Below are positions 5,677-32,245 of a DNA stretch of 64,000 nt, one piece after another. Each line of letters begins with the position of its first letter. Positions within the stretch are counted from its first letter, which is position 1. This stretch comes from Flavobacteriaceae bacterium (GTDB taxonomy: Bacteria > Bacteroidota > Bacteroidia > Flavobacteriales > Flavobacteriaceae). Below the pieces are notes generated by a model. The model worked only from the letters and a program-made list of their open reading frames with translations, did not search any database and was not told the origin of the DNA. Position numbers and translations under genes: made by a program. The stretch lies in assembly GCA_009926065.1 (NCBI GenBank), contig RFPP01000002.1, forward strand, positions 29,713 to 93,712, given 5' to 3'.

Positions 5677-5691
5677 AAGTGTATTTTTTTG

Positions 5692-5699
5692 CAAAAGTA
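5692..5699 (-). promoter_or_regulatory. Bacteroidota sigma-A -7 box (TACTTTTG) for ABC-F gene
   Basis: Exact TAnnTTTG 16 nt upstream of the GTG start. Confidence 0.5.
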
Positions 5700-5731
5700 A
5701 GCTATTGTATTGAAACTTGTTACTTTGAAAC

Positions 5732-5763
5732 TTTGCAACTTTACAACTTAAAATATATCTTTG
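5732..5763 (+). promoter_or_regulatory. Bacteroidota sigma-A promoter (-33 TTTG / -7 TATCTTTG) for GT2 gene
   Basis: TTTG at 5732-5735, 20-nt spacer, TATCTTTG at 5756-5763, ATG at 5768. Confidence 0.6.
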
Positions 5764-5767
5764 AAAA

Positions 5768-6928
5768 ATGCAATTATCAGTAATCATCCTTAATTATAAT
5801 GTTCGCTTCTTCTTAGAGCAATGTGTTGCAAGTGTTCAAGAGGCACTGACCAACATTGATAGTGAAATTATTGTAGTTGATAATGATTCTTCTGATTATA
5901 GTTGTGAAATGATTAAATCTCGTTTTCCAAACGTGAAACTCATTGAAAATAATTCTAATTTGGGATTTCCAAAAGGGAATAATATTGGTGTAAGTCAGGC
6001 CAAAGGTGATTATATTTGTATATTAAATCCGGATACTGTTGTTGCTGAGGATACCTTCGCTATGATTCTCGCATTTGCTGAAAAGCAAGAAAATCTGGGA
6101 ATTGTTGGATGCAAATTAATAGATGGCTCGGGTAATTTTTTACCAGAGAGTAAAAGAGGGATTCCAACTCCTTTTGTAGCGTTCACTAAAATAGTTGGTC
6201 TTAATAAATTATTTCCAAATTGGGAAATTTTCAATCGTTATTATGCTCAATATTTATCTGAAAATGAAACAGGGAAAGTCGATATTCTTGTTGGTGCTTT
6301 TATGATAATGAAGCGCGATTTATATAATGAAATTGGTGGATTTGATGAAAATTGTTTTATGTATTCTGACGATATTGATTTGTGTTTTATGGCCTTAAAA
6401 ATCGGAAAAAACAATTTTTATTTCCATGAAACTTCTGTAGTACATTATAAAGGAGAAAGCACCATAAAAGACGGTTTGTACATGAAGCGATTCCGAGATG
6501 CGATGCAGTTTTTTTATAAGAAACATTATAAAAGTTCTCCGTTATTTGATTTTTTCATGAAAATAGGAACTTTGTTTTTTTCTTTAATCAAAAAAAATCA
6601 GGGGAATAGTAATCCAATTGAAATTGATGATTATATTTTGATATCTAAGGATGAAAATTTGAAGAATAAATTGGAAAAACAATTGAATAAAAAATTAAAT
6701 TGGGAAACTAAATTAGATTCAAATAGCTTATTTTCGCATGGAAATAATAGTAAAAAGCAAACAGAGATTTTGATTGATAATAACTCATTTTCATTTAAAT
6801 TGATTATTTCATTTATAGAAACATATAACAATCAAGGTTTTACCTTTAAAATTATTCCTAAAAATACTTTATTTATGATAGGAAGTAACAATAGCAACGA
6901 CAAAGGAACAGTAGTAAAAATTGATTAA
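5768..6928 (+). CDS. Glycosyltransferase family 2
   Basis: LSVIILNYN, VVDNDSSD, ILNPDT, DENCFMYSDDIDLC, HYKGES motifs. Confidence 0.9.
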   Translation: MQLSVIILNYNVRFFLEQCVASVQEALTNIDSEIIVVDNDSSDYSCEMIKSRFPNVKLIENNSNLGFPKGNNIGVSQAKGDYICILNPDTVVAEDTFAMILAFAEKQENLGIVGCKLIDGSGNFLPESKRGIPTPFVAFTKIVGLNKLFPNWEIFNRYYAQYLSENETGKVDILVGAFMIMKRDLYNEIGGFDENCFMYSDDIDLCFMALKIGKNNFYFHETSVVHYKGESTIKDGLYMKRFRDAMQFFYKKHYKSSPLFDFFMKIGTLFFSLIKKNQGNSNPIEIDDYILISKDENLKNKLEKQLNKKLNWETKLDSNSLFSHGNNSKKQTEILIDNNSFSFKLIISFIETYNNQGFTFKIIPKNTLFMIGSNNSNDKGTVVKID

Positions 6929-19335: not shown

Positions 19336-21534
19336 TTGAAAACCAACGTTTTTATTATCACCCCGCCGTTCACCCAACTGAACACCCCATATCCGGCTTC
19401 TGCCTATATTAAAGGTTTTCTAAATACGTTGAATGTTCCAACTTTTCAAGCTGATTTAGGAATTGAGGTGATTTTAGAATTGTTTTCCAAAGAAGGACTT
19501 ATAAATTTGTTCAAAGTTGAAAGTTTGAAGTTGAATCTTGATGAACTTTCAGACAATTCCTCTCGTATTTTAGCGCTACAAGACGAGTACATCAAAACGA
19601 TTGACAGTGTTATTTCTTTTTTGCAAGGAAAAAATCCAACTTTAGCATTGCAAATATGTCAAGGTGATTATTTGCCTGAAGCTTCCCGTTTTAATCAAAT
19701 TGAAGAAATGGATTGGGCTTTTGGAACCATGGGAACTCAAGACAAAGCCAAGCATTTGGCCACTTTATATTTAGAAGATATTTCAGATTATATTGTAGAA
19801 TGTATCGATGAAAATTTTGGATTCAGTCGTTATGCGGAACGTTTGGGCAGGAGCGCCAATTCCTTTGATGAATTGTATGATACTTTAAATCAACAAACTA
19901 CTTATATCGATACCATTTTAATTTCGATATTAAAATCGAAAATTGAAACCATTCAACCGGCATTATTCCTTATTTCTGTTCCATTTCCAGGAAATTTGTA
20001 TGCTGCTTTTCGATGTGCCCAATGGGTGAAAAAAAATCACCCTACTATTAAAATTTCAATGGGCGGTGGATTCCCAAATACTGAACTACGTTCGCTTTCC
20101 GATAAAAGAGTTTTTGAATTTTTCGATTTTATTACCCTTGACGATGGCGAATTACCACTAAAATTACTAATTGACAATTTAAATTTACAAGCTTCTGGGG
20201 AATATAAAAGAACTTTTCTTTTAGAAAATGGCAAAGTGGTTTACAAGAATAATACTTCAAAATCCGATTACAAACAAGCCGAGGTCGGAACTCCTGACTA
20301 TTCCGATTTACTTTTAGATAAATACATTTCTGTAATTGAAATTGTAAATCCAATGCATCGAATGTGGAGCGATGGACGTTGGAATAAACTAACCATGGCG
20401 CACGGTTGTTATTGGGGAAAATGTACTTTTTGTGATGTTTCACTGGATTATATAAAATTATACGAACCCGTTGCAGCCAATATTTTGTGCGATAGAATAG
20501 AACAGTTAATTGCTCAAACGGGACAAAACGGTTTTCACTTTGTTGACGAAGCCGCTCCTCCAGCATTAATGAGAGCGCTAGCTTTAGAAATATTACGGAG
20601 GAAAATAGATGTAACTTGGTGGACCAATATCCGATTTGAAAAGAGTTTTTCTAAAGAGCTATGTCAATTATTGAAAGCCTCTGGTTGTATTGCCGTTTCT
20701 GGCGGATTGGAAGTTGCCTCGGATAGATTATTGGCTCTTATTGATAAAGGAGTAACAGTTGAACAAGTTGCAAAAGTGACCCGAAATTTCACTGAAGCCG
20801 GAGTTATGGTTCATGCCTATTTAATGTATGGTTATCCAACGCAAACAGTTCAAGAAACCGTTGATAGTTTGGAAATGGTGCGTCAGTTATTTGAATCTGA
20901 TGTTATACAATCTGGATTTTGGCACCAATTTGCAATGACCGCCCATAGTCCCATTGGATTAAATCCAGAAAAATTTGGTGTTTTTAAAGATACAGAGGAA
21001 ATAGGAACCTTCGCCAATAATGATATTAATTTTGTTGATTCGACTGGTGTTGACCACAATCAATTTAGTTTTGGGTTAAAGAAATCACTTTACAATTTCA
21101 TGCACGGAATATGTTTTGATTATCCATTACAAGATTGGTTTGATTTTAAAATACCACCAACTACAATTTCAGAAGATTTCATTTATAATGCACTAACTGA
21201 AGAAACAGATTTATCTATCAAGCCGAATTCAAAGGTGATTTGGATAGGAGGAGAGCCACAAGTTGCTAATTTTGTTAAAACCAAAAAAGGAAATTCCTGG
21301 GAAATGAGCACATTGACATTTCACGATAAAAAGGAGTCTTATTCTGTACAATTGAATCGTGAAGAGGGGGATTGGTTAATTGAAACACTCAAGAAAGTTT
21401 CGATTTCAAATACTAAATTAAAGACACTTCAAGAAATTAAATCAGACTTTGAATCTCAATTTGAGAATTTTGAATTGTTTTGGTTTTCTAAGCCAATACT
21501 AACATTGAGAGATTACGGATTATTAATTGTCTAA
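19336..21534 (+). CDS. B12-binding-domain radical SAM protein
   Basis: TTG start; PPFTQLNTPYP N-terminus, GGGFPNTELR, CYWGKCTFC cluster motif, FVDEAAPP, SGGLEVAS, YLMYGYP. Confidence 0.88.
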   Translation: MKTNVFIITPPFTQLNTPYPASAYIKGFLNTLNVPTFQADLGIEVILELFSKEGLINLFKVESLKLNLDELSDNSSRILALQDEYIKTIDSVISFLQGKNPTLALQICQGDYLPEASRFNQIEEMDWAFGTMGTQDKAKHLATLYLEDISDYIVECIDENFGFSRYAERLGRSANSFDELYDTLNQQTTYIDTILISILKSKIETIQPALFLISVPFPGNLYAAFRCAQWVKKNHPTIKISMGGGFPNTELRSLSDKRVFEFFDFITLDDGELPLKLLIDNLNLQASGEYKRTFLLENGKVVYKNNTSKSDYKQAEVGTPDYSDLLLDKYISVIEIVNPMHRMWSDGRWNKLTMAHGCYWGKCTFCDVSLDYIKLYEPVAANILCDRIEQLIAQTGQNGFHFVDEAAPPALMRALALEILRRKIDVTWWTNIRFEKSFSKELCQLLKASGCIAVSGGLEVASDRLLALIDKGVTVEQVAKVTRNFTEAGVMVHAYLMYGYPTQTVQETVDSLEMVRQLFESDVIQSGFWHQFAMTAHSPIGLNPEKFGVFKDTEEIGTFANNDINFVDSTGVDHNQFSFGLKKSLYNFMHGICFDYPLQDWFDFKIPPTTISEDFIYNALTEETDLSIKPNSKVIWIGGEPQVANFVKTKKGNSWEMSTLTFHDKKESYSVQLNREEGDWLIETLKKVSISNTKLKTLQEIKSDFESQFENFELFWFSKPILTLRDYGLLIV

Positions 21535-21572
21535 TAATTAGATAATTGTTTTTTTTTATTGAAATATTATTC

Positions 21573-21580
21573 TATTTTTG
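21573..21580 (+). promoter_or_regulatory. Putative -7 box (TATTTTTG) for ankyrin-DOMON unit
   Basis: TAnnTTTG 18 nt upstream of ATG 21598. Confidence 0.5.
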
Positions 21581-21597
21581 AGACGCGATTCAATCCA

Positions 21598-22119
21598 ATG
21601 AAAAACTACTTTCAAATAGTCCTTTTGCTGCTTCTATGTACTTCTTTGAAAGGACAAGTTAAAAATGTATTCGATGTTGCTCGAAAAGGAACCTTATCAG
21701 AAATACAAAATATCTACAAACAAAATCCAGAACTTGTAAATGCTATTAATGATAATAAAGCTACGCCCTTAATTTTAGCTTGCTATAGAAATAATGAAGC
21801 CGTAGCATTATATTTATCAGATATAGTTTCAAACATAAATTACAATTCTGGCATGGGAACTGCATTGATGGCAGCAATTATGTCGGGAAATAAAGTAATT
21901 ATAGAGAAATTAATTTCAAAAAAAGCAGATTTAGATCAGCAAGATATTCAAGGAAAAACGGCATTAATCTATGCTGCTTTTAATAATAATTTTGAAGTTG
22001 CTCAGTTGCTTGTTAAAGCGGGTGCGAATTCTAAGCTTGCTGATAATGAAAAAAGAACCGCATTAGATTACGCAAAATTTAATAAGAATACCCAGTTAAT
22101 CATATTATTAGATAAATAA
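21598..22119 (+). CDS. Exported ankyrin-repeat protein
   Basis: ATG 21598 gives a Sec signal (MKNYFQIVLLLLLCTSLKG-Q); ankyrin repeats TPLILAC, TALMAAI, TALIYAA, TALDYA. Confidence 0.9.
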   Translation: MKNYFQIVLLLLLCTSLKGQVKNVFDVARKGTLSEIQNIYKQNPELVNAINDNKATPLILACYRNNEAVALYLSDIVSNINYNSGMGTALMAAIMSGNKVIIEKLISKKADLDQQDIQGKTALIYAAFNNNFEVAQLLVKAGANSKLADNEKRTALDYAKFNKNTQLIILLDK

Positions 22120-22144
22120 AACACAACCATTCAATTAAAAAATT

Positions 22145-22903
22145 ATGAAAAAACTTTACTTTGCAATTGCCTTATTAGTTGGGCTAAATGTCTCAATGGC
22201 ACAAACAAAATCCACTGGAGTTGTAAATTTAAATAGTTTAATGACTCTAAAAATTGATTTGAATTCAGCCACATCAACTGTTACAATAACACTAACTGGT
22301 CCATCCGACCGATGGTTTGGAATAGGATTTAATGCAACTTCAATGTTTAACGGTACGGATTGTATATACTATACAACCTCATTAGTAGATTCAGTTATAA
22401 CAGGCCAATCTTCACCCTCAACTGATACTACAAACGAATGGACTGTAGTTAGCGATAATATAATATCAGGCACAACAAGGTCTCTTGTAATTACTAGAAA
22501 TTTTGTTGGTGGAATAGGTGATTATACTTTTAATTATAATAATAATACTTTAAATATTATTTGGGCTTATGGATCAAGTGTAACAATGTCACAACATTCA
22601 GGCATAGGTAGAGGCTCGAGTAATTTAGGATTTACACTTGGGGTTCATGATTTCTCTTCTTTAGATAACATTACAATTGCTCCAAATCCTTCTAATGGTA
22701 TTTTCAAAATTACAAAAAATATTCAAACTTCCATTTCTAAAGTTACCGTATTTGATATCAATGGAAAGGTTCTAAAAGTGATTGATTCAGAATTAAGCTT
22801 AGATTCAATACAAATGAATTTATCAGATTTTTCTAAAGGGGTTTATTTTGTAGAAATCAGTAATGATATCGATAAAGTAGTTCGCAAAATAGTAATTGAT
22901 TAA
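22145..22903 (+). CDS. T9SS type-A cargo with DOMON-like domain
   Basis: Signal peptide; WFGIGFNATSM and IIWAYG...QH DOMON strands; C-terminal IAPNPSNGIF...FDINGK...LSDFSKGVYFVEI...RKIVID type-A CTD. Confidence 0.82.
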   Translation: MKKLYFAIALLVGLNVSMAQTKSTGVVNLNSLMTLKIDLNSATSTVTITLTGPSDRWFGIGFNATSMFNGTDCIYYTTSLVDSVITGQSSPSTDTTNEWTVVSDNIISGTTRSLVITRNFVGGIGDYTFNYNNNTLNIIWAYGSSVTMSQHSGIGRGSSNLGFTLGVHDFSSLDNITIAPNPSNGIFKITKNIQTSISKVTVFDINGKVLKVIDSELSLDSIQMNLSDFSKGVYFVEISNDIDKVVRKIVID

Positions 22904-22922
22904 TTCAATTTCTAAAATTTTT

Positions 22923-22956
22923 AAAAACTCTATTTTTTGAAATAGAGTTTTTTTTT
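22923..22956 (+). terminator. Rho-independent terminator after DOMON gene
   Basis: AAAAACTCTATTT / AAATAGAGTTTTT stem followed by a T-run. Confidence 0.75.
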
Positions 22957-23056
22957 GTCATTAATTCAGATTTATTAAGCATAATGAGGTTTCAACCTTA
23001 ATTATTTAATTATGAAAATCTTACCATTTTTAGACTGTTTATGATATTTATTTTAA

Positions 23057-23064
23057 TAAATTTG
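23057..23064 (+). promoter_or_regulatory. Putative -7 box (TAAATTTG) for OB-fold/DUF5777/cytochrome/YceI unit
   Basis: TAnnTTTG 23 nt upstream of ATG 23087. Confidence 0.5.
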
Positions 23065-23086
23065 AATAATATTAATTCAGCTAAGA

Positions 23087-23482
23087 ATGTCTAAGAAAAC
23101 AAAAATAATAGGATTTCTGATTGGAGTAGTTTTGCTAATATTAGTTACTTTAATTTATGTTTTTTATGGAGGTTCAAGAAATATAGCTACCGAAGAAGCT
23201 GAATTTATTATACCATCAAAAGTTATTACCGCTGAATTCACTGCTGATGTTGCTAAAGCTACACTTAACTATTCCGACAAAACTATTGCTGTTTCTGGAA
23301 AAGTAACTGCGGTTTCTGATAGTATTGTTACTATCGATAATACGATAATATGTAATTTTAATATTCCTGATAAAAGTATAAAAACAGATCAATCTGTTTC
23401 CATTAAAGGAAGATTGGTAGGTTATGATGACTTGATGGGTGAGTTAAAATTAGACCAATGTTCAATAAATAAAAACAATTAA
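23087..23482 (+). CDS. Membrane-anchored OB-fold protein (tRNA_anti-like family)
   Basis: N-terminal TM helix; KTIAVSGKV and VSIKGRLVGYDDL OB-fold strands; two Cys. Confidence 0.72.
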   Translation: MSKKTKIIGFLIGVVLLILVTLIYVFYGGSRNIATEEAEFIIPSKVITAEFTADVAKATLNYSDKTIAVSGKVTAVSDSIVTIDNTIICNFNIPDKSIKTDQSVSIKGRLVGYDDLMGELKLDQCSINKNN

Positions 23483-23483
23483 A

Positions 23484-24359
23484 ATGAAAATTAAGAACTT
23501 ATTGTCGATCATTCTAGTCTTTTGTGCTCTCGGTTCTACAAAGGCACAAGATGATTTATTAAACCAATTGGACGCTGGTGCACCAAAACAAGATAATATA
23601 GAAATAGCAGCATTCAAAGGCCTTCAAATTTGCAATATGCAATCCACAAAATTGCCAGGTAAAGGAGAATTTTATTTCATAGTTTCACATCGTTTTGGAG
23701 ATTTAGCACAAGGAATGGAGAATTTTTTCGGATTGGATAATGCTTATACTAAATTAGGAGGAATTTACGGAGTTTCTAATTGGTTTGCTATTAGCGCTTC
23801 ACGACATACTTTTCAAAAAACATTTGAATTGGCTACTAAATATAAAATAGCAAATCAGGAAGAAGAGGGATTTCCGCTTACCTTAGTAGGTTACAATACA
23901 ATGGATATCAATAGTGAATTGAAAAAGAATGATATAATGCCTGGATTACAATTCAATCACCGATTGGCATTTACAACTCAATTATTGGTTTCTAGAAAAT
24001 TCAATGATTCTTTTTCATTTGAAGTAGCTCCAATATACGTTCATAAAAATTTATATGATGGAATTTTAGATCAAAAATCGACCTTATTGTTGGGAACAGG
24101 AGCTAGATATAAAATTGCTAAGCGATTAAGCTTAAATTTAGAATATGCAGCTAGGTTAAATCTTCCAGAAGGATTTGTTTCAAATTATAGCAACCCACTA
24201 ACTTTAGGTTTAGATATTGAAACTGGTGGTCACGTATTCCAATTGGTATTCTCAAACAGTCAAGCTATGAATGACGTAGCTGTATTTACTAATGCAAATG
24301 GGCGTTGGGATGGCACTAAACAATTGTATTTTGGTTTTAATATGTACAGAGTTTTTTAA
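23484..24359 (+). CDS. Outer-membrane beta-barrel, DUF5777-like
   Basis: Signal peptide ending AQDDLL, SHRFG, GLDIETGGHVFQL, amphipathic strands, C-terminal YFGFNMYRVF with terminal Phe. Confidence 0.82.
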   Translation: MKIKNLLSIILVFCALGSTKAQDDLLNQLDAGAPKQDNIEIAAFKGLQICNMQSTKLPGKGEFYFIVSHRFGDLAQGMENFFGLDNAYTKLGGIYGVSNWFAISASRHTFQKTFELATKYKIANQEEEGFPLTLVGYNTMDINSELKKNDIMPGLQFNHRLAFTTQLLVSRKFNDSFSFEVAPIYVHKNLYDGILDQKSTLLLGTGARYKIAKRLSLNLEYAARLNLPEGFVSNYSNPLTLGLDIETGGHVFQLVFSNSQAMNDVAVFTNANGRWDGTKQLYFGFNMYRVF

Positions 24360-24370
24360 AATAAATTATT

Positions 24371-24712
24371 ATGAAAAATTTAAAATTATTTTTATTCGCA
24401 ATTAGCAGTTTGTTTATTGTTTCATGCGAATCTACAACCATTCAGGATATATCAGGTGTAGTTACTAATCCTACTTACAATTTGCATATAAAACCAGTAA
24501 TGACATCAAAATGTACAGGTTGTCATGCTGCAGGAGGTCAATTTCCAAATTTAACTTCCTATTCTGCAGTTAAAAATGCAACTCAAAATGGTGCTTTGTT
24601 GTGCAGGTTAGATGCCTCATGCGGTAACATTATGCCACAATCGGGGAGTTTGCCTCAAGCTACAATTACAATGATTAATACTTGGGCTACCAATAATTTC
24701 CCTGAAAATTAA
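24371..24712 (+). CDS. Monoheme c-type cytochrome lipoprotein
   Basis: Lipobox IVSC (Cys19), CTGCH heme motif (48-52), distal MP motif (Met88), extra Cys78/Cys84 pair. Confidence 0.85.
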   Translation: MKNLKLFLFAISSLFIVSCESTTIQDISGVVTNPTYNLHIKPVMTSKCTGCHAAGGQFPNLTSYSAVKNATQNGALLCRLDASCGNIMPQSGSLPQATITMINTWATNNFPEN

Positions 24713-24718
24713 ATTAAG

Positions 24719-25261
24719 ATGAAAAAAATAATCTTATTTACGTTATTATTAGTTGTAAACATAACTTTGGCGCAAAGATTGTTAACTCGTTCTGGGGAAA
24801 TTAAATTTGATGCATCTATGCCGAATTTAGTTGAAATTGCTGGAAAAAGCAACACTGTTTCAGCAATTTTAGATCTCCCAACTGGACAATTTGCAACAAG
24901 TGTGATAATTAAATCGATACGTTTCAAAATACCTTTAATGGAGGAACATTTTAATGAGAATTATATGGAATCTTCTAAATTTCCTAATTCTACATTTAAA
25001 GGAAAAGTTATAGGTTTTGATGCTACAAAATTATCTATTAATAAAGTTGCTTTTGATATTGAAGGCGATTTAACTATTCATGGAGTAACTAAGAAAGTAA
25101 AAACTAAAATCTATTTATCTTCAAATGGAAGTAAGGTTGCTGCAACAGGAAATTTTACGGTTCATGCACAAGATTATGGAATTGAAATTCCAAAACTTGT
25201 AAAAGATAAATTTGCTGAACAGATTAAAGTTAGCTTTAATTTCGATTTAGATTCAAAATAA
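24719..25261 (+). CDS. YceI family protein
   Basis: Signal peptide; LMEEHFNENYMESSKFPNSTFKG, GDLTIHGVTKKV, DYGIEIP. Confidence 0.9.
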   Translation: MKKIILFTLLLVVNITLAQRLLTRSGEIKFDASMPNLVEIAGKSNTVSAILDLPTGQFATSVIIKSIRFKIPLMEEHFNENYMESSKFPNSTFKGKVIGFDATKLSINKVAFDIEGDLTIHGVTKKVKTKIYLSSNGSKVAATGNFTVHAQDYGIEIPKLVKDKFAEQIKVSFNFDLDSK

Positions 25262-25269
25262 GATTTATT

Positions 25270-25298
25270 AAAAAAACCGCGATAATCGCGGTTTTTTT
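25270..25298. terminator. Bidirectional terminator
   Basis: AAAAAAACCGCGAT-A-ATCGCGGTTTTTTT perfect inverted repeat between convergent genes. Confidence 0.88.
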
Positions 25299-25304
25299 AA
25301 TACT

Positions 25305-25784
25305 CTATCTGTTTCTCCTAGAATAAGCTTCTTGTTGTTTTTTAGCATCTTCAGCAAGCAATTTGTATTTTGCTTTTTGATCTTTATTAAGTAAAATCAT
25401 AATATCAAGATCCATTTTTTCGGCAATTGCTTTAAGCTCATTTGCTTTTTCTTCATTTCCACCTTCTTCTTTTTTTATTATCGCATTTTGCTTTTTTATA
25501 TTTTCAGTGATAATATTAGAAATAGCAATAACCTGAAGTTCATCTAGTTTTAGTTGTTGGTTGAGTCTATCGACCACTTTTTTTACCGTTTCTTCAATTG
25601 CCGGTTCTTTTGGTTGAGATCTTTGAGGTTGCATATTGCGGTTTCCATTCATTCCACCATTCATTCCACCACCCATTCCACCACCCATTCCACCTTGGCC
25701 CATTCCGCCTTGGCCAAATTGAGCTGAAATAGATTGCATTGAAAATAGTAAAATTAAAGTGCAAATTATTTTAATTGATTTCAT
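25305..25784 (-). CDS. Exported helical protein with Gly/Met-rich repeat (Spy/CpxP-like hypothetical)
   Basis: Signal peptide, GQGGMGQGGMGGGMGGGMNGGMNG, then LKLDELQ and LNKDQKAKY helices. Confidence 0.7.
   Translation of the reverse strand: MKSIKIICTLILLFSMQSISAQFGQGGMGQGGMGGGMGGGMNGGMNGNRNMQPQRSQPKEPAIEETVKKVVDRLNQQLKLDELQVIAISNIITENIKKQNAIIKKEEGGNEEKANELKAIAEKMDLDIMILLNKDQKAKYKLLAEDAKKQQEAYSRRNR
25645..25715 (-). repeat. In-frame tandem repeats (12- and 15-nt units) encoding the G/M-rich tract
   Basis: TTCATTCCACCA x2, CCCATTCCACCA x2, CCCATTCCRCCTTGG x2 on the + strand. Confidence 0.8.
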
Positions 25785-27284: not shown

Positions 27285-30200
27285 TTATCTTTTAAGCGTA
27301 AAATGACCTTTTGCGGTTCTACCATCTTCAAAATAAATAGTATACCAATAATCATCTGATGGCAGGGGTTGACCATTAAAAGTTCCATCCCAACCTTTAC
27401 TGATAGGGCTTAATTCTTTCAATAATTTACCATAACGGTCAAAAATATAAATCGAAGTATTATAATTTTTTGTTGTAGTTAAACCTAGAACATTCCAAGT
27501 ATCGTTGAATCCATCAGCATTTGGAGTGAAAAATTTTGGAATACCAATAACATTAATTATTTGAGATGTTGTTCCACAACCATCCAGGTCTTTAACATAA
27601 ACGGTATGAACACCTGGAGCGACATCAGTAAAAATATTTATTGTTTGATATGCATTTGGATAATCTAAACTGAAAACATAATTGCCTAATCCTGTTACAT
27701 TTATTATTACAGTATTATTTTCACTCAAATCCATTATTGTTGGCATTTCAAAATGTGCTGCATCTGAAGCTATTACAGTAATTGTTCTAATTCTAAAACA
27801 ACCTGAAGAATTAATTACTTTAACGGTATAAATCCCTTCGGTATTTACATTTAATGTATAAGATGTTGCAGTTGGTATTACCACTCCATCTTTATACCAT
27901 TCATAAGTATAATTTGTTATTGGAGTTCCATCGGTTATTCCTGCATTCAATAACACAAAGAAAGTTGGATCATTACTACAAACTAATGTTGAAGTTTGTA
28001 ACTCAATCACCGGCACCGGATTTACAGTAAATGTAATTGTTTTAGTTAATTTACAAGTTGGATTAATCGGATTGTAAACAACAATTTTAATGTTCTTTGT
28101 TAATGTTACTGGCAATGGATTAGGCAGTGGTGTTGATAAAAGTACATTATTTTCATCATAATATTCAAACGCCATTCCTGACGGTTGATTAAAAGTTACA
28201 ATATCATGAATCGCTTGCGAAGTAGTAAAATCAAACTGACCGTTTTGCAATGCAGGGTCAGTTTCATCATCACAAATAGTAGTCAACGAAGCAGGTATTG
28301 TAAAATCAATGGGTGATTTATCAACTGTAAATTGAATAGTTGTATCATACCAGCAAGCTTGTGGCGTGGTATTGGTTACAACCGCTCTAATCGTTTGTGA
28401 AGTTGAGGAGAATGTTGCTGGAAATGGACTTGTAATTAAGTTATTATTTGAATCTCTCAGCGGGTTATTTGAAGAATCAAAATAAGTGACCGCAACTCCA
28501 GTTTGCCCTAGTAATAAATCGCTTTCTAAGTTAGCAGTATTAAAATTAAAAATACCGTCTGTATTATCGTCACATTGTCTAGGTATATTCACAGTATGTG
28601 CAAAAGGTTTTGCCTGAACATTTAAAGTAACCCAGGGTCCTAAGCCATAACAAGCATTCGTTAAATCGCTATCTACTCTCACCCAAATATTTTGAGTTGA
28701 GGGATATCCTATGTTTCTATAGTTGGTTAAATTAGTTATCTCATTTTGTTGTGCTAAAGCATCAGCTCTATTTCTGTAATATTTAATAAAATAATTTCCA
28801 GTTGATGGTAATAAAGCTCTAATTGTTGGTTCAGTAGAACTAAAATCGAAGGATGCAACACCATCACGGTCATTATTGTTTGCATTGTTATTACCATTAA
28901 TATCTAAAAAATCATCGCATACCGCAGGCAAAGTAATATTATAGGTACTTGGAATATTTGGCGCAGCAACTTTTAAAGTTATTTTTGCAACTCTATAACA
29001 GCCATTAACAGTAGTTACTCTTGTCCAAATGTACATTAGGCTAGGAGTAGTATTTGTAAAAGCAAGTGGAGTAGTTATTTGATCAAAGGTCGGATTTGCG
29101 TTAGCTCCAGCCAAAGAAGTATAATAAGTAAATGTCTCATTTGCCGAATTAGCTGAAATTTGATTATTATTTACAGTCAAATTGAAAGCGGTAATTGCAT
29201 CTAAATCATCGTCACATTGAACTATTGTAATGTCATTAATTACAGGTAATGGATTTACAATTACCTCCGAAATATTGGTAGAAACAGTTCCACAATTTCC
29301 ATTGGCATAAGTGGCAACACAATAATAATATAAAGTTCCTACTACAGAAGTTATTGGGGTATAACTGAGTGAAGTTGCCCCTGAAATTATTGTTCCTCCT
29401 GTATAGGAATTAACAGTATTAGAATACCATTGATAAGTTGGAGTTCCAGTACCATTAATGAAGGCGGTTGTTAAATTAACCGGAGTGTTATTTATACAAA
29501 TAGACTGACTCGCTAATGGTTGTATGCTAACTGATGGATTATTAACTGTTTGAACATTTACTACAGGACTTGTTACTAAACATCCTAATCCAGATTGAGC
29601 AATTACACAATAGTAAGATTGGGTACCTACATTTGAAGTTGAAGGTGTGTAATTTGCATTTGTTGCTCCTACTATCGAGGGGTTGGGAGAGGTATTATAC
29701 CATTGGTAATAATAAGTTCCCACTCCTCCTGTTGGAGTTACAACCAAATCAGTAGGGGTTGTTCCTTGGCAAATAATTTGATTATTTGGGGTAATCGTTA
29801 CAGTTGGATCAGCGACAACACGAACTAAAGCGGTATTTGTTGGTACACTTCCACAATCTAAACCTGAAAAAGAAACCGTTGCATAATAATAAAAGTCGCC
29901 TCCAATATTGAAAGTTGGAGTGAAATAAGAAGTGTTTGTAGCACCTGAAATAGCATTACCACTGGTTGTATTGTTAGTACTTGTACTGTACCACTGAATT
30001 GATGGTGTTCCTAATCCTCCTGAATAAGCTATCGTAAATGGAGCAACAGCTGCTCCCACACAAATATCTTGAGTTGTTAAAGGTTGAGTGGTTATGGTTT
30101 GAACAGGATTTACAACTAAATTAAAGGTAGTAGTTAAAAAACACCCTGAGGCTGCCATAGTTAACCTTACATAAATTATTCTATTTCCTGTATTTATGGA

Positions 30201-32213
30201 AGTGATACCATTTTGACCCAAATTAGCATCATTCTGAGAGGTATGATAAGTAACATTAACACCAGTTTGTGAACCCAATACTTCACTATTTTTTAATAAT
30301 AAGTTGAAAGTTGCAGTTCCATTTGTCGCACTTCCGTCAACGGCATCATCACATTTTGAAAAATCAGTAATTGCATTTATAATTGGAACTGCTGAATTAT
30401 TTACATTAACTGTAGACGATACTAATGGACAAGCTCCAGTGGCAGGAAAACTATATGTATATATCCCACCTGCGTCTACCGCTGGATTAAAAACTCCAGT
30501 TCCAGAACTTAAAACTGGACTCCATGTACCTCCAACTTCTGCGGTACTTCCTAACAAACTGAATAAATTATAAGAAGGTGTAGTTACACACGATGAGGTA
30601 TTTGTGCTAACTCCAGGATTTTTAATTTGCTGAATAGTTACATTTACTTTTACACTTATAGTAGTTAGTGAAGTATTACAAGATTTTGTAAACGTGTATA
30701 TGTATTCCCCAGGTAAATTAATTGAAGGATCAAAAATATTTCCATTTAGTGGGGCTCCACCCGCTGGAACAGTCCATGTTCCACCTGGTCCAGGATTTCC
30801 ATTAATTACCGTGAATAAATCTCTAGTACTATTGGAACAAACTGTGACATTTGTATCCTGAGGGGTACTTCCAAAACCAGAATAGTAACCTGCAAATCCA
30901 ACAGCTGATCCCTGAAATCCAAAAACCCCAACGGCTAAAGGTCCTGTTGAAGTAATATTAAGATTTCCAGATTGATTTGAAACTCTGTAAGATACCCAGT
31001 CGGTATTTCCCAAAACTGCTTGAGCTTGGGATGTAGGTACAGCAACTCCATTAATTGATATTGTTGCGTTAGAGTAGGTCAACATCATTAAGTCAGTTGT
31101 GTAAGTATTGGTTCCTATTTGATTTACATTGGGAATATTAACAGAATTTTGGAAGAAACAGCTCAAAGGAGGTATAAAATTTAATCCGGAGGTAGCAGTG
31201 TCTGAACCCCCACCTAATAATTGATATGCGAAAACAGGCTTACTTGATCGAACATATATATTACTATTATTTGTGCCTTGATAATAAGAATTAGGAACTA
31301 AATAATATTGGCCAGCATTTAATGTAGTTACCGGAGTTGTACTTCCATTTACAAAAATAGCTGTGTTGTCTTCGTGAGCAACTATTAAGGGATTTTCCAT
31401 AGCAGGACTACCATTTCCTTCTATAAATATATAATCGGTTCCAATTTGGGTTGCAGAAACTATTTGGTCTAAAGTTAGGTCAGCCCGACCATTTGCAATA
31501 CCACCTAGTGCATTTCCAGTATTTACAGAAACAGGTTTATCTGAAGTGATTAAACCGCCTATAATACCATCTAGATTAGCAGTTACATTACTGTATCCAC
31601 TAAATACAATGCACTCTCCAGCATTTAATGTAAATGTTTGTGTGTCGGCAGTTATATTTCCAGCACCACTTGAAAAAATTACCCCAGTATTATAATTTGA
31701 TAAAGTTACCGTAGTATTATTTTCAGTTGCCATAACACTGGCTACAAAGTTTTTTCTATTGTCTTGACTTTCATTAATTGTACATCCTAATCTAAAACTT
31801 GTTCCAATTCCTGGTTTTCCTTTTGAAATAATAGTTTCGGCATGACTTGCATGTCGCATTCTAAAACTAACATAAAAATCTTTTGGTCCTTGAAGAATTA
31901 CTCCTCTTCCTGAAACAACGGTATTTACATCACTAAGACTTAAAAACATTTTTGTAGGTTGTCCAGTACCTATTGTAAAAAAAGCTGGGCTGGTTGCCGA
32001 AATAGTAAACGGAGAACCGGCATAAGGTGTTCCATTTCCATCAGTTGCTGTTACTTGAAACGGAGTAGTTTCATTGGTTGACATGTAGATATATTGGTCA
32101 GAAATAGCAGTGTTATCTCTTGAATGTAAAGGCGGTATCCAGTGTTTATTACTCAACTGAGAAAATGAAATCGCAGTAGCGAATAATAAAAACAATAATG
32201 CTAATTTTTTCAT
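27285..32213 (-). CDS. Large T9SS type-B cargo (IgGFc-binding-like N-terminal domain, Ig-like repeats, gliding-motility CTD); probable adhesin
   Basis: ATG 32213 gives a signal peptide; repeated ICxG...YQWY...GAT...YTP...YYYC and CDD..DG..xF(N/D) modules; CTD IPKFFTPNADGFND...FDRYGK...WDGTFNG...DDYW...GHFTLKR. Confidence 0.9.
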   Translation of the reverse strand: MKKLALLFLLFATAISFSQLSNKHWIPPLHSRDNTAISDQYIYMSTNETTPFQVTATDGNGTPYAGSPFTISATSPAFFTIGTGQPTKMFLSLSDVNTVVSGRGVILQGPKDFYVSFRMRHASHAETIISKGKPGIGTSFRLGCTINESQDNRKNFVASVMATENNTTVTLSNYNTGVIFSSGAGNITADTQTFTLNAGECIVFSGYSNVTANLDGIIGGLITSDKPVSVNTGNALGGIANGRADLTLDQIVSATQIGTDYIFIEGNGSPAMENPLIVAHEDNTAIFVNGSTTPVTTLNAGQYYLVPNSYYQGTNNSNIYVRSSKPVFAYQLLGGGSDTATSGLNFIPPLSCFFQNSVNIPNVNQIGTNTYTTDLMMLTYSNATISINGVAVPTSQAQAVLGNTDWVSYRVSNQSGNLNITSTGPLAVGVFGFQGSAVGFAGYYSGFGSTPQDTNVTVCSNSTRDLFTVINGNPGPGGTWTVPAGGAPLNGNIFDPSINLPGEYIYTFTKSCNTSLTTISVKVNVTIQQIKNPGVSTNTSSCVTTPSYNLFSLLGSTAEVGGTWSPVLSSGTGVFNPAVDAGGIYTYSFPATGACPLVSSTVNVNNSAVPIINAITDFSKCDDAVDGSATNGTATFNLLLKNSEVLGSQTGVNVTYHTSQNDANLGQNGITSINTGNRIIYVRLTMAASGCFLTTTFNLVVNPVQTITTQPLTTQDICVGAAVAPFTIAYSGGLGTPSIQWYSTSTNNTTSGNAISGATNTSYFTPTFNIGGDFYYYATVSFSGLDCGSVPTNTALVRVVADPTVTITPNNQIICQGTTPTDLVVTPTGGVGTYYYQWYNTSPNPSIVGATNANYTPSTSNVGTQSYYCVIAQSGLGCLVTSPVVNVQTVNNPSVSIQPLASQSICINNTPVNLTTAFINGTGTPTYQWYSNTVNSYTGGTIISGATSLSYTPITSVVGTLYYYCVATYANGNCGTVSTNISEVIVNPLPVINDITIVQCDDDLDAITAFNLTVNNNQISANSANETFTYYTSLAGANANPTFDQITTPLAFTNTTPSLMYIWTRVTTVNGCYRVAKITLKVAAPNIPSTYNITLPAVCDDFLDINGNNNANNNDRDGVASFDFSSTEPTIRALLPSTGNYFIKYYRNRADALAQQNEITNLTNYRNIGYPSTQNIWVRVDSDLTNACYGLGPWVTLNVQAKPFAHTVNIPRQCDDNTDGIFNFNTANLESDLLLGQTGVAVTYFDSSNNPLRDSNNNLITSPFPATFSSTSQTIRAVVTNTTPQACWYDTTIQFTVDKSPIDFTIPASLTTICDDETDPALQNGQFDFTTSQAIHDIVTFNQPSGMAFEYYDENNVLLSTPLPNPLPVTLTKNIKIVVYNPINPTCKLTKTITFTVNPVPVIELQTSTLVCSNDPTFFVLLNAGITDGTPITNYTYEWYKDGVVIPTATSYTLNVNTEGIYTVKVINSSGCFRIRTITVIASDAAHFEMPTIMDLSENNTVIINVTGLGNYVFSLDYPNAYQTINIFTDVAPGVHTVYVKDLDGCGTTSQIINVIGIPKFFTPNADGFNDTWNVLGLTTTKNYNTSIYIFDRYGKLLKELSPISKGWDGTFNGQPLPSDDYWYTIYFEDGRTAKGHFTLKR

Positions 32214-32245
32214 AATAGTAATCACAAAGTGTAAAAATAGAATAT

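Follow-up and report, generated by a model that had tools for sequence, protein, structure and literature searches.

A conserved outer-membrane barrel, cytochrome c and YceI gene module of Flavobacteriales: a candidate for electron transfer between cell envelope and surface

Cyc2 of the Fe(II) oxidisers is a monohaem cytochrome fused to a porin, and the Acidithiobacillus chain runs from cyc2 through rusticyanin to cyc1. In eukaryotes, DOMON-cytochrome b561 and Reeler-DOMON-b561 proteins are ferric reductases. YceI proteins are periplasmic lipid binders of a family known for holding isoprenoid quinones, and in E. coli the cytochrome b561 gene yceJ adjoins yceI. Candidate Fe(II)-oxidation genes of the Cyc2 kind have been reviewed (PMC5566968). 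YceI-like X158 domains are ubiquinone-8 binders, and Cbp2D, an extracellular redox protein, has them fused to c-type cytochrome domains (PMC8981238). The X183 cytochrome of Cbp2D/Cbp2E type, from Cellvibrio japonicus and related Teredinibacter proteins, can reduce a copper enzyme, LPMO (PMC8981238, PMC10916295, PMC12542752).

Here we analyse six co-oriented genes on the + strand, at 21598-25261 of a 64,000-nt stretch of DNA (the window) from a freshwater Flavobacterium. Their arrangement resembles MtrCAB of Shewanella and Pcc/OmbB-OmaB-OmcB of Geobacter. There, too, the gene for an outer-membrane barrel has as neighbours those for a cytochrome c on the periplasmic side and for a lipoprotein or a redox protein at the surface; some clusters also include a regulator, and the presumed aim is a redox link between periplasm and exterior (PMC4282303, PMC4245776). 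It departs from them in strand number (12 in the barrel against ~20-26 in theirs) and in haem number (one in the window cytochrome against 8-12), in having a DOMON or cupredoxin protein exported by T9SS as terminal carrier, and in including YceI, which is without a counterpart there. No family matches indicating Mtr/Pcc homology were found among the six window proteins. A literature search returned no paper describing such a gene set, which agrees with the statement in a preliminary description of this DNA that its author knew of no characterised system with such a composition; the module is real, conserved across Flavobacteriales relatives and uncharacterised.

With the Cyc2 chain the module shares a minimal design, one c-haem and an outer-membrane barrel, with cupredoxin and small cytochrome c as high-potential carriers, and the DUF5777 relative P0286 is similarly fused to a CxxCH-bearing domain; but in the window barrel and cytochrome are separate genes and the barrel is smaller. 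The comparison is one of design. In DOMON-b561 systems, too, an extracellular DOMON ends a transmembrane electron path, and Reeler-like and DOMON domains share a partner, whereas here the membrane crossing would be an outer-membrane beta-barrel with a c-type cytochrome instead of the b561 helix bundle. Unlike the eukaryotic DOMON cytochromes, the window DOMON is exported by T9SS and its haem binding is putative. The modelled DOMON fold is like that of the cytochrome domains of CDH and pyranose dehydrogenase (1d7b, 6jt6), with a Met/His pair where haem-b ligands would be expected. Cbp2D and Cbp2E are single multidomain secreted proteins with carbohydrate-binding modules, for which the available portions of the sources describe no barrel or DOMON, while the window parts are separate, membrane-associated and T9SS-linked. 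As in E. coli yceJ-yceI, YceI is genetically paired with a small cytochrome, although in that pair the cytochrome is b-type and sits in the inner membrane, and there is neither barrel nor secreted carrier.

The genes are separated, in order, by 25, 183, 1, 11 and 6 nt. All six ORFs claimed in the preliminary description were recovered, and each product carries an export signal or anchor as read directly from its sequence, those of the ankyrin, DOMON, barrel and YceI proteins being signal peptides with a terminal Q. A TAnnTTTG box of the Bacteroidota -7 promoter type (TATTTTTG, 21573..21580, + strand) lies 18 nt 5' of the ankyrin start codon, and a second, promoter-like box (TAAATTTG, 23057..23064, + strand) lies 23 nt 5' of the OB-fold gene and is kept in the closest relatives (L003 and L004). 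Both boxes are where they had been reported, but the AT-rich window holds no excess of the motif (108 copies versus 116 expected), so it is only their position that speaks for them as promoters. The terminators reported at 22923 and 25270 are both genuine hairpins. The former (22923..22952, + strand; dG -11.2 kcal/mol, z -3.6) is followed by a T run and forms a terminator-like end to the ankyrin-DOMON unit; the latter (25266..25302; dG -21.5 kcal/mol, z -7.9) is a strong bidirectional intrinsic terminator with a 17-bp stem. It is common to the YceI unit and a convergent gene at 25305-25784. Metatranscriptome contigs from relatives (90-95% identical) in freshwater metatranscriptomes, libraries of a kind that may contain DNA carry-over, cover 21599-22881 and 22875-25079. 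These contigs and the two hairpins agree with two transcription units, the arrangement originally proposed.

The first unit begins with a 173-aa ankyrin-repeat protein (21598..22119, + strand; Pfam Ank_2, E 2e-20) with a signal peptide, predicted to be periplasmic. Its ATG at 21598 agrees with orthologue starts, and the TTG at 21559 given in the ORF list probably makes the protein too long; conserved residues are seen among the orthologues. Next comes a DOMON protein with a T9SS type A C-terminal sorting domain, predicted to be secreted or surface-bound (22145..22903, + strand; Pfam DOMON 33.7 bits against a cut-off of 32.7, Por_Secre_tail E 1e-14). Its model is of low confidence (pLDDT 62), with DBH DOMON, the 6jt6 cytochrome b domain and the CDH cytochromes 1pl3/1d7c/1d7b as best matches. 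Among ankyrin-linked orthologues His151 is invariant and Met67 is kept in 21 of 22, which makes the protein a candidate b-type haem carrier with these two residues as ligands; the pair is chosen by conservation, and the likeness to CDH is one of modelled fold. Taking Cj1386, an ankyrin protein that traffics haem, as an analogue, we propose that the ankyrin protein may be a dedicated periplasmic helper or chaperone for the DOMON protein.

The second unit opens with a 131-aa protein (23087..23482, + strand) anchored by an N-terminal transmembrane segment and carrying a predicted periplasmic OB-fold, whose tRNA_anti-like match scores only 19.8 bits, under the Pfam cut-off of 23.5. Its stop codon lies 1 nt ahead of the start of the barrel gene (23484..24359, + strand), which encodes a DUF5777 outer-membrane beta-barrel (Pfam 280 bits) ending in Phe. 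This family, of 1493 clusters at 50% identity, supplies the core of the module. The AlphaFold2 model has 12 strands (pLDDT 90.6), and its Foldseek matches are NanC/KdgM, FapF, OmpG and the COG4313 channel. The motifs HRFG and ETGGHxFQ are invariant, as are many charged and polar residues in the family; by strand periodicity the conserved His187 and His250 face the hydrophobic side, not the lumen, and the phase of His69 is ambiguous. An enclosed cytochrome, as in Mtr/Pcc-type porin-cytochrome complexes, is ruled out, the barrel being too small. The specific wire of the preliminary description, quinone-YceI-cytochrome c-barrel-DOMON, is a hypothetical one. One barrel relative (P0286) is fused to a Reeler-like domain bearing CTECH, a motif of the CxxCH type.

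Downstream lies the gene for a lipid-anchored monohaem cytochrome c of 113 aa (24371..24712, + strand), with the lipobox VSC19 and the haem-attachment motif CTGCH (C48xxC51H52). Although no Pfam family scores above its cut-off, the family profile matches cytochrome c6 (E 1.6e-6), CcoP and PccH (4rlr). CxxCH, Met-Pro (Met88-Pro89 here) and the lipid Cys19 are all invariant in the family, and the protein is thus predicted to be a class I electron carrier with His52 and Met88 as ligands. Some distant relatives have 2-3 haem units. Because cytochromes of the family carry an acidic stretch after the lipid Cys, and some a long tether, the protein may be at the cell surface rather than in the periplasm. 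The last gene (24719..25261, + strand) encodes a YceI-family protein (Pfam 64 bits), predicted to be periplasmic and of the polyisoprenoid/quinone-binding type.

The genes co-occur across related loci, the outcome of the neighbourhood check that the preliminary description had suggested. Barrel, cytochrome and YceI genes are found together in 79 of 82 loci, the YceI gene always immediately 3' of the cytochrome gene; the OB gene is present in 62, always immediately 5' of the barrel, and is missing from Chryseobacterium; the ankyrin gene is present in 33, always as Ank>DOMON>. This grouping is far beyond chance co-occurrence. Even distant DUF5777 relatives (~32-38% identity) have the same cytochrome family and/or YceI adjoining in all nine informative contexts. 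Three tight pairs, OB>Barrel, CytC>YceI and Ank>DOMON, occur in at least five relative arrangements. The ankyrin-DOMON pair, which accompanies the barrel set in Flavobacterium, Chryseobacterium and several marine genera, may lie upstream or downstream of it, on the opposite strand or, in some loci, between OB and barrel. It is an accessory to the module, given its presence in 33 of 82 loci and its occurrence as rSAM-Ank-DOMON in locus L092, where the barrel module was not found within 7 kb on each side. In four genera (L049, L057, L062, L070) the T9SS partner is a cupredoxin with the type-1 copper ligands His/Cys/His/Met all kept. Other T9SS partners (lamin-tail-like, CBM96-like, FlgD_ig-like) have no redox motif, and about half of the loci are without a DOMON or cupredoxin partner within 6 kb.

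On balance we lean towards a role for the module in electron transfer between the Flavobacteriales cell envelope and surface. Gene content, conservation, barrel fold, cofactor-ligand conservation and transcription are observed; what we propose on cofactor loading, on topology and on the path, direction and substrate of electron flow is inferred. The core would be the 12-strand DUF5777 barrel, the lipid-anchored His52/Met88 cytochrome and periplasmic YceI, to which the window adds an inner-membrane-anchored OB-fold protein, presumably translationally coupled to the barrel, and the T9SS DOMON unit with its putative ankyrin helper. Single electrons would move between the periplasmic quinone/c-cytochrome pool and a one-electron carrier located at the cell surface or beyond it, DOMON in the window and cupredoxin in other genera; all carriers would be of high-potential types. 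The module has no gene for an inner-membrane quinol dehydrogenase, and the 12-strand barrel offers no obvious protein route for electrons. As it is too narrow for a cytochrome, the barrel might pass the acidic N-terminal tether of the cytochrome, or a small redox-active solute or quinone head group; alternatively, it might dock the lipoprotein cytochrome at the membrane. Likely roles would include reduction of Fe(III) or Cu(II) chelates for uptake, extracellular Fe(II) oxidation, and feeding or draining extracellular oxidoreductases, metal reduction thus being one among several possibilities.

The barrel could instead be a small substrate-specific porin for a small redox-active or hydrophobic solute (for instance a metal ion, a compound resembling quinone, or some reactive species of oxygen or sulfur), with all redox chemistry periplasmic, no protein-borne electrons crossing the outer membrane and DOMON only loosely related. 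Its nearest structural neighbours, the specific porins NanC/KdgM and the hydrophobic-solute channel COG4313, are what this would lead one to expect, as are the invariant charged and polar residues, the lipid binding of YceI proteins in the periplasm and the many loci that hold the core trio with no T9SS partner nearby. We nevertheless regard it as unlikely, since single-domain T9SS redox carriers, DOMON or cupredoxin, recur inside the operon, between OB and barrel, the acidic stretches and long tethers of the cytochromes suggest surface exposure, and the existence of multi-haem variants hints more at a wire than at one enzymatic step. We give less credence still to the idea that the two units function separately and are adjacent by inherited synteny. 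They do have their own promoter-like boxes, a terminator between them and distinct transcript contigs in the window, an ankyrin gene with its DOMON lies within 6 kb of the barrel in only 33 of 82 loci, and L092 has the pair with no barrel module within 7 kb on either side; yet the link spans Flavobacterium, Chryseobacterium and several marine genera in varied positions and strands, which points to selection for proximity, not descent, and cupredoxin substitutes fill the same slot.

Haem capture or trafficking, the other option raised initially, would make DOMON a haemophore, the barrel a haem channel, and ankyrin and YceI periplasmic haem carriers. The ankyrin protein Cj1386 does deliver haem to catalase (PMC11442138), FecR/ECF/TonB-receptor sets of the iron-uptake type (PMC9249621) flank the module in 21 loci, and in Riemerella iron limitation induces an ankyrin gene by a TonB receptor and a YceI gene (PMC5429918), a family-level comparison that does not imply orthology. 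This reading is nonetheless very unlikely: the conserved partner is a c-type cytochrome with multi-haem relatives, whose haem cannot be handed on because it is covalently fixed, some secreted partners are copper proteins, and the conserved neighbours of the module in related loci include no haem oxygenase, HmuY, HemTUV-type transporter or the like. Electron transfer is favoured over it by the class I His/Met cytochrome with its multi-haem relatives, the DOMON Met/His pair and the cupredoxin swap, and of the two themes first put forward it is the redox one that stands. That YceI and the barrel carry menaquinone, a carotenoid or a flexirubin-type pigment precursor to the outer membrane, with a cytochrome merely protective or regulatory in redox, agrees with the polyisoprenoid binding of YceI-family proteins and with the hydrophobic-molecule channels among the barrel's structural matches, but leaves the invariant pairing with c-type cytochromes, the multi-haem variants and the secreted DOMON and cupredoxin proteins unexplained; we consider it the most improbable of these readings.

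The surroundings of the module in relatives recall FecIRA-type signalling, with an ECF sigma factor, FecR anti-sigma and TonB-dependent receptor flanking 21 of 82 loci and a shared promoter motif; such sets typically govern iron-carrier uptake (PMC9249621). In contrast to FecIRA, neither the set nor the motif was found in the window, and the TonB receptor of the relatives has no match to solved structures or NCBIfam families. The motif, GTAGGGT-N15-TGTT, occurs in 47 copies in related loci versus ~2 in shuffles, and 36 of the copies lie upstream of OB, CytC, the FecR-TonB receptor or a surface lipoprotein; it is read as an ECF-sigma-type promoter ahead of the module in many relatives.

All six co-oriented genes that had been read from the window were recovered as open reading frames on the forward strand. 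ORF and domain searches give an ankyrin protein (21598-22119) and a DOMON protein with a type IX secretion system (T9SS) sorting tail (22145-22903); these are followed by an N-terminally membrane-anchored OB-fold protein (23087-23482), a DUF5777 barrel (23484-24359; Pfam PF19089), a 113-aa CxxCH lipoprotein recognized by its lipobox and haem motif (24371-24712), and a YceI protein (24719-25261; Pfam PF04264). The intergenic gaps are, in order, 25, 183, 1, 11 and 6 nt. The domain assignments hold in Pfam and NCBIfam searches, except that the OB-fold match falls below threshold (19.8 bits, cut-off 23.5) and the cytochrome has no match above cut-off. The transcription signals named in the preliminary description are also present: TAnnTTTG boxes lie at 21573 and 23057, and the two terminators correspond to significant hairpins at 22923-22952 (z -3.6) and 25266-25302 (z -7.9). 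TAnnTTTG is not enriched in the window (108 observed versus 116 in shuffles), and a sigma-70 promoter scan returned sites no commoner than chance. The region is naturally transcribed, and the proposed layout of an ankyrin-DOMON unit and an OB-barrel-cytochrome-YceI unit fits metatranscriptome contigs spanning 21599-22881 and 22875-25079, which come from relatives 90–95% identical and may contain DNA carry-over. The region also occurs in freshwater metagenome DNA runs; window G+C is ~31%, and the nearest relatives are Flavobacterium.

To define which genes belong together, we used 82 loci (numbered with the prefix L), 80 from a one-genome-per-species scan and two fetched earlier, the scanned loci coming from Flavobacterium, Chryseobacterium and many marine Flavobacteriaceae. 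When the ORFs of these loci were searched with the window's proteins, the barrel was found in 82/82, the cytochrome and YceI in 79 each, the OB-fold protein in 62, and the ankyrin in 33; the DOMON query matched a T9SS-tailed protein in 40, a count that combines true DOMONs, cupredoxins and others. Unsupervised clustering of all locus ORFs left this ranking unchanged. The neighbourhood, whose conservation across Bacteroidota had been put forward as the check on the grouping, thus holds in these relatives: the core trio of this exported set is kept and the pairs are reshuffled. The order OB-barrel, cytochrome-YceI and ankyrin-DOMON is invariant within each pair. The ankyrin-DOMON pair lies upstream in the window, downstream in Chryseobacterium, and elsewhere between the OB and barrel genes or on the opposite strand; cytochrome-YceI is divergent from the barrel in some loci, and in Chryseobacterium a Crp-family regulator stands in place of OB. 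That the genes stay close together in different genera despite rearrangement argues strongly that they are functionally linked.

At one locus, L092, a radical SAM gene, the ankyrin and the DOMON are present, and the 7 kb read on either side contain no barrel set; ankyrin-DOMON is therefore an accessory unit able to stand alone. The window's own radical SAM gene (19336-21534, forward strand) encodes 732 aa with weak matches to B12-binding families (PhpK/HpnJ/BchE-like), and its counterparts adjoin the module or ankyrin-DOMON in several Flavobacterium loci and at L092. We rejected it as a module member, since it is kept only in close Flavobacterium relatives and L092; its position is probably inherited synteny, with a cofactor-related role possible. 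One marine locus has a cobalamin riboswitch (L075:398-608, reverse strand, 98.8 bits) at a distance of ~5 kb from the module; it is probably unrelated.

The barrel matches PF19089 with 280.2 bits (cut-off 23.1), and AlphaFold2 models it with 12 strands at pLDDT 90.6; the best structural matches of the model are NanC/KdgM porins, FapF, OmpG and the COG4313 channel. HRFG and D-I-E-T-G-G-H-x-F-Q are near-invariant in the family, which has at least 7,313 relatives among a capped set of 8,000 candidates and forms 1493 clusters at 50% identity in an exhaustive search. We considered whether conserved histidines might hold haem in the barrel lumen and rejected this, as strand periodicity places His187 and His250 in phase with the hydrophobic residues of the predicted strands; the phase of His69 is ambiguous, and the model suggests that the conserved histidines probably line no lumen.

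Eleven DUF5777 representatives at ~32–38% identity to the window barrel were sampled singly, and in 9/9 informative contexts the same cytochrome family and/or YceI adjoins the barrel. At L083 there are two small cytochromes and a barrel, P0286 (L083:959-2329), fused to an N-terminal Reeler-like domain carrying CTECH; at L085 the barrel is accompanied by a 134-aa cytochrome and by a 343-aa protein in which CxxCH occurs twice; and at L087 it is accompanied by a 126-aa cytochrome and by a 329-aa lipoprotein containing three PSCyt1-like units. L088 has two cytochromes and YceI, L090 and L091 have YceI, L093 has cytochrome, barrel and YceI, and L094 has a two-domain cytochrome, a CATAGCH variant, barrel and YceI. 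The relative P0183 is a tandem double DUF5777 barrel in one protein of 615 aa, adjoined by YceI. What these contexts have in common, and hence the core, is the barrel, one or more lipoprotein c-type cytochromes, and YceI.

The cytochrome, which carries the sole CxxCH of the 64-kb window, matches no family above cut-off (best PccH, 18.5 bits). C48xxC51H52 and M88-P89 are nevertheless invariant in 23 diverse members, distant ones included, as are the lipid Cys and one Trp. The family profile aligns with cytochrome c6 over the haem motif and Met ligand (E 1.6e-6), and also matches CcoP and PccH. On these grounds the family is class I c-type with His/Met ligands, and haem attachment is predicted. 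Its lipobox (...FIVSC19), with a Cys invariant across the family, marks it as a predicted bacterial lipoprotein. The stretch after the lipid Cys is acidic (CESTTIQD in the window; CYYDKEE, CFYDNKDD and CSKDNEED elsewhere), and long tethers rich in Asp, Pro or Gly occur in some orthologues. Because this stretch resembles the surface-export signal of Bacteroidota lipoproteins, surface exposure of the cytochrome is possible, the acidic residues being suggestive. Odd members of the family occur at L088:7050-7556, L094:767-1117, L094:70-762 and L087:1043-2032; one has a run of ~13 Asp straight after the haem motif, and several units have CxxxCH (CATAGCH, CAMSGCH, CATTGCH) instead of CxxCH. YceI (64.2 bits, cut-off 23.7) is a typical family member and a predicted lipid binder. 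Ubiquinone-8 is a ligand of YceI-like X158 domains, and Cbp2D of Cellvibrio japonicus joins such a domain to c-type cytochrome domains in one protein (PMC8981238, PMC10916295).

The DOMON protein barely passes the Pfam threshold (33.7 bits, cut-off 32.7), and its tail is strongly matched (PF18962, E 1.2e-14; TIGR04183, 50.5 bits versus 23), so that we predict it to be a T9SS type A cargo. When its profile was compared with PDB sequences, the T9SS tail alone matched, to solved T9SS C-terminal domains. Across 22 ankyrin-linked orthologues, His151, Asp72, Arg118 and Asp126 are invariant, and Met67 is present in 21. Fungal cytochrome domains of cellobiose dehydrogenase (CDH) and pyranose dehydrogenase have Met/His haem ligation. 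The DOMON model is weak (pLDDT 62, shallow alignment), and with this low-confidence model the best Foldseek matches were the dopamine beta-hydroxylase DOMON, 6jt6 (pyranose dehydrogenase cytochrome b domain) and 1pl3/1d7c/1d7b (CDH). The ankyrin protein has a signal peptide and precedes the DOMON wherever found. Another ankyrin protein, Cj1386, binds haem and hands it to catalase (PMC11442138); because of this haem delivery, it is plausible by analogy that the ankyrin helps to load the DOMON with haem.

In four loci the DOMON slot, in or beside the module, is occupied by a T9SS-tailed cupredoxin of the plastocyanin/azurin family (L049:5397-5966, L057:6942-7520, L070:5357-5947 and, on the reverse strand, L062:7875-8504). 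These keep the invariant His, Cys, His and Met ligands of type-1 copper, and the DOMON partners, which conserve their candidate haem ligands, likewise carry T9SS tails; secreted blue-copper proteins appear to be undescribed as T9SS cargo. The carrier-swap argument is complicated by other loci, where the T9SS partners have no obvious redox motif: they are lamin-tail-like in L048, L066 and L076, CBM96-like in L068, and FlgD_ig/DUF2271-like in L006 and L011. Elsewhere in the window, a 1646-aa repetitive surface-type protein (27285-32225, reverse strand) has a C-terminal end (…FTPNADGFNDTW…) that resembles a gliding-motility/T9SS type B sorting domain, as would be expected if the organism has a functional T9SS. 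Convergent with the module, a 159-aa secreted protein (25305-25784, reverse strand) has a Gly/Met-rich N-terminal stretch (GGMGQGGMGGGMGGGM...), and its C-terminal half is charged and probably helical; Pfam gave no match, and the protein is conserved in only 2/82 loci. Such Met-rich stretches are often Cu(I)-binding.

The conservation and comparative evidence is strong, and it is the function, direction and substrate of the module that we infer. On balance, it is probable that this is an envelope-to-surface electron-transfer module, in which electrons would pass between the periplasmic quinone/cytochrome pool and a surface carrier. Because twelve strands cannot enclose the cytochrome, the barrel would most likely pass the cytochrome's N-terminal tether, pass a small mediator (a quinone head group or metal ion), or act as a docking platform. 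High potentials are typical of class I c, CDH-type b and type-1 copper centres; such a chain would thus suit Fe(III)/Cu(II) chelate reduction, Fe(II) oxidation, or coupling to an extracellular oxidoreductase, and would be ill suited to iron-mineral respiration. The module lacks a gene for an inner-membrane quinol oxidoreductase and must therefore link to general respiratory cytochromes or to YceI-bound quinone.

Other readings account for parts of the same evidence. Porins and a channel are among the barrel's best structural matches, as would fit a specific channel with chemistry in the periplasm only; beside secreted partners with conserved redox ligands, we consider this unlikely. That the two transcription units are unrelated would agree with the solitary ankyrin-DOMON at L092, and is distinctly unlikely when set against their retained proximity elsewhere. 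Haem trafficking, the alternative raised in the preliminary description, would give the ankyrin a natural role, but the secreted partner may be a blue-copper protein rather than a haem-b-type one. The one property common to haem-b-type and blue-copper domains is single-electron carriage; this speaks more strongly than anything else for electron transfer and against haem trafficking, a reading that we judge very unlikely. Isoprenoid-lipid handling would draw on the predicted lipid binding of YceI and, alongside a cytochrome with invariant haem ligands, is highly improbable.

Within the electron-transfer reading, we tentatively put forward a more specific and rather doubtful possibility, that the module is an outer-membrane conduit for electrons, the first to be described from Bacteroidota, with parts unrelated to Mtr, Pcc or Cyc2 and swappable T9SS carriers. 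The 12-strand DUF5777 barrel would partner a monohaem lipoprotein cytochrome, tethered and possibly exposed at the surface, and a YceI that carries quinone, the extracellular terminus would be an interchangeable T9SS-delivered haem-b DOMON or blue-copper protein, and in many species an extracellular ligand would switch the module on via a TonB-dependent transducer and ECF sigma factor.

Among known systems, the closest functional parallels of the module would be the porin-cytochrome conduits (PMC4282303, PMC4245776) and Cyc2, with its minimal design. In MtrCAB/Pcc, a porin-like barrel of ~20–26 strands encloses a multi-haem periplasmic cytochrome and is joined by a multi-haem surface lipoprotein, whereas the window barrel has 12 strands and its cytochrome a single haem motif; no Mtr/Pcc family match was found among the window proteins in Pfam or NCBIfam. 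Cyc2 has an N-terminal CxxCH domain fused to its barrel and is set apart by this architecture from the separate genes of the window, although a fused barrel occurs elsewhere in the DUF5777 family (P0286). Cbp2D/E are each one secreted polypeptide with CBM2 and the YceI-like X158, Cbp2D adding X183/X132 cytochrome domains; in the window, YceI and cytochrome are separate proteins, so that domain types alone are shared, and Pfam detected no CBM in the module. The haem-b DOMON cytochromes (CDH/AA8, AIR12, DOMON-b561) combine the DOMON fold, Met/His axial ligands and haem b. Eukaryotic DOMON-cytochrome reductases have domain types in common with the module, which differs in architecture, location and export route. 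In kind, the module would be an outer-membrane redox conduit built from unrelated parts.

To our knowledge, no outer-membrane electron-transfer system has been described for Bacteroidota, which rank among the most abundant heterotrophs of lakes, oceans, soils and guts. Our literature search found no paper on DUF5777 or the module gene set, and nothing on the module under YceI-cytochrome Flavobacterium, DOMON extracellular electron transfer, or T9SS with DOMON or cupredoxin; 'DOMON' in Porphyromonas papers is an author's surname. If our proposal is true, it assigns a function to the large DUF5777 family and to an unnamed lipoprotein cytochrome c family, and implies that type IX secretion exports dedicated redox carriers. 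Abundant aerobic Flavobacteriales of fresh water, sea and soil would gain a dedicated extracellular iron/copper redox route or, alternatively, one for generating or removing reactive oxygen species, and with it would come a molecular handle on extracellular iron/copper reduction, Fe(II) oxidation or superoxide chemistry.

Regulation differs between the window and its relatives. FecIRA consists of adjacent ECF sigma, FecR and TonB transducer genes with a sigma-dependent promoter, an arrangement not found in the window and present in 21 related loci. In these 21/82 loci an ECF sigma, a FecR anti-sigma and a TonB-dependent receptor adjoin the module, usually with a surface lipoprotein (cluster u347); receptor and lipoprotein matched neither a solved structure nor an NCBIfam family. 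A bipartite motif, GTAGGGT(A/T)-N15-TGTT, with a variable final position (TGTT(T/A)), was counted 47 times across 1.04 Mb of locus sequence versus ~2 in shuffles, and 36 of these copies lie at most 300 nt upstream of OB, CytC (the cytochrome gene), FecR or u347. Sites include L030 664, 4219 and 97 (reverse strand); L006 3585 (reverse strand), 4155, 5513 and 9772; L019 5502; and L022 5484. The motif heads the FecR-TonB receptor genes, the surface lipoprotein and the OB-barrel-cytochrome-YceI operon, and is probably the target promoter of the neighbouring ECF sigma. In relatives, the module thus looks, by analogy, like part of a ligand-induced cell-surface-signalling regulon; those of the FecIRA kind are best known for iron carriers (PMC9249621). 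The window contains no ECF sigma, FecR or TonB-transducer homologue and no bipartite motif upstream of either unit, and because these are missing its module appears to use ordinary promoters. Rfam found no riboswitch or other RNA family within or before the module in the window and 11 related loci. RNA-seq of Riemerella under iron limitation lists as induced a YceI gene and an ankyrin gene that adjoins a TonB receptor, which may be counterparts of the module genes (PMC5429918).

The module lends itself to direct tests, since Flavobacterium johnsoniae is amenable to genetics and its strain CI04 carries an ECF-controlled version. In F. johnsoniae-type loci, several more motif copies precede a PF03640 lipoprotein ahead of OB. 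This 'Lipoprotein_15' protein (L030:4461-5342 and equivalents), with a Yx(FWY)xxD repeat and an acidic post-Cys stretch, is encoded between the TonB receptor and OB, behind an ECF-type motif. In Chryseobacterium and relatives (L031-L043, L047, L056), a Crp/Fnr regulator without an N-terminal Cys cluster lies directly upstream of the barrel at ~5230-5880; all Chryseobacterium loci have it and lack the OB gene, and it is an alternative regulator of the module.
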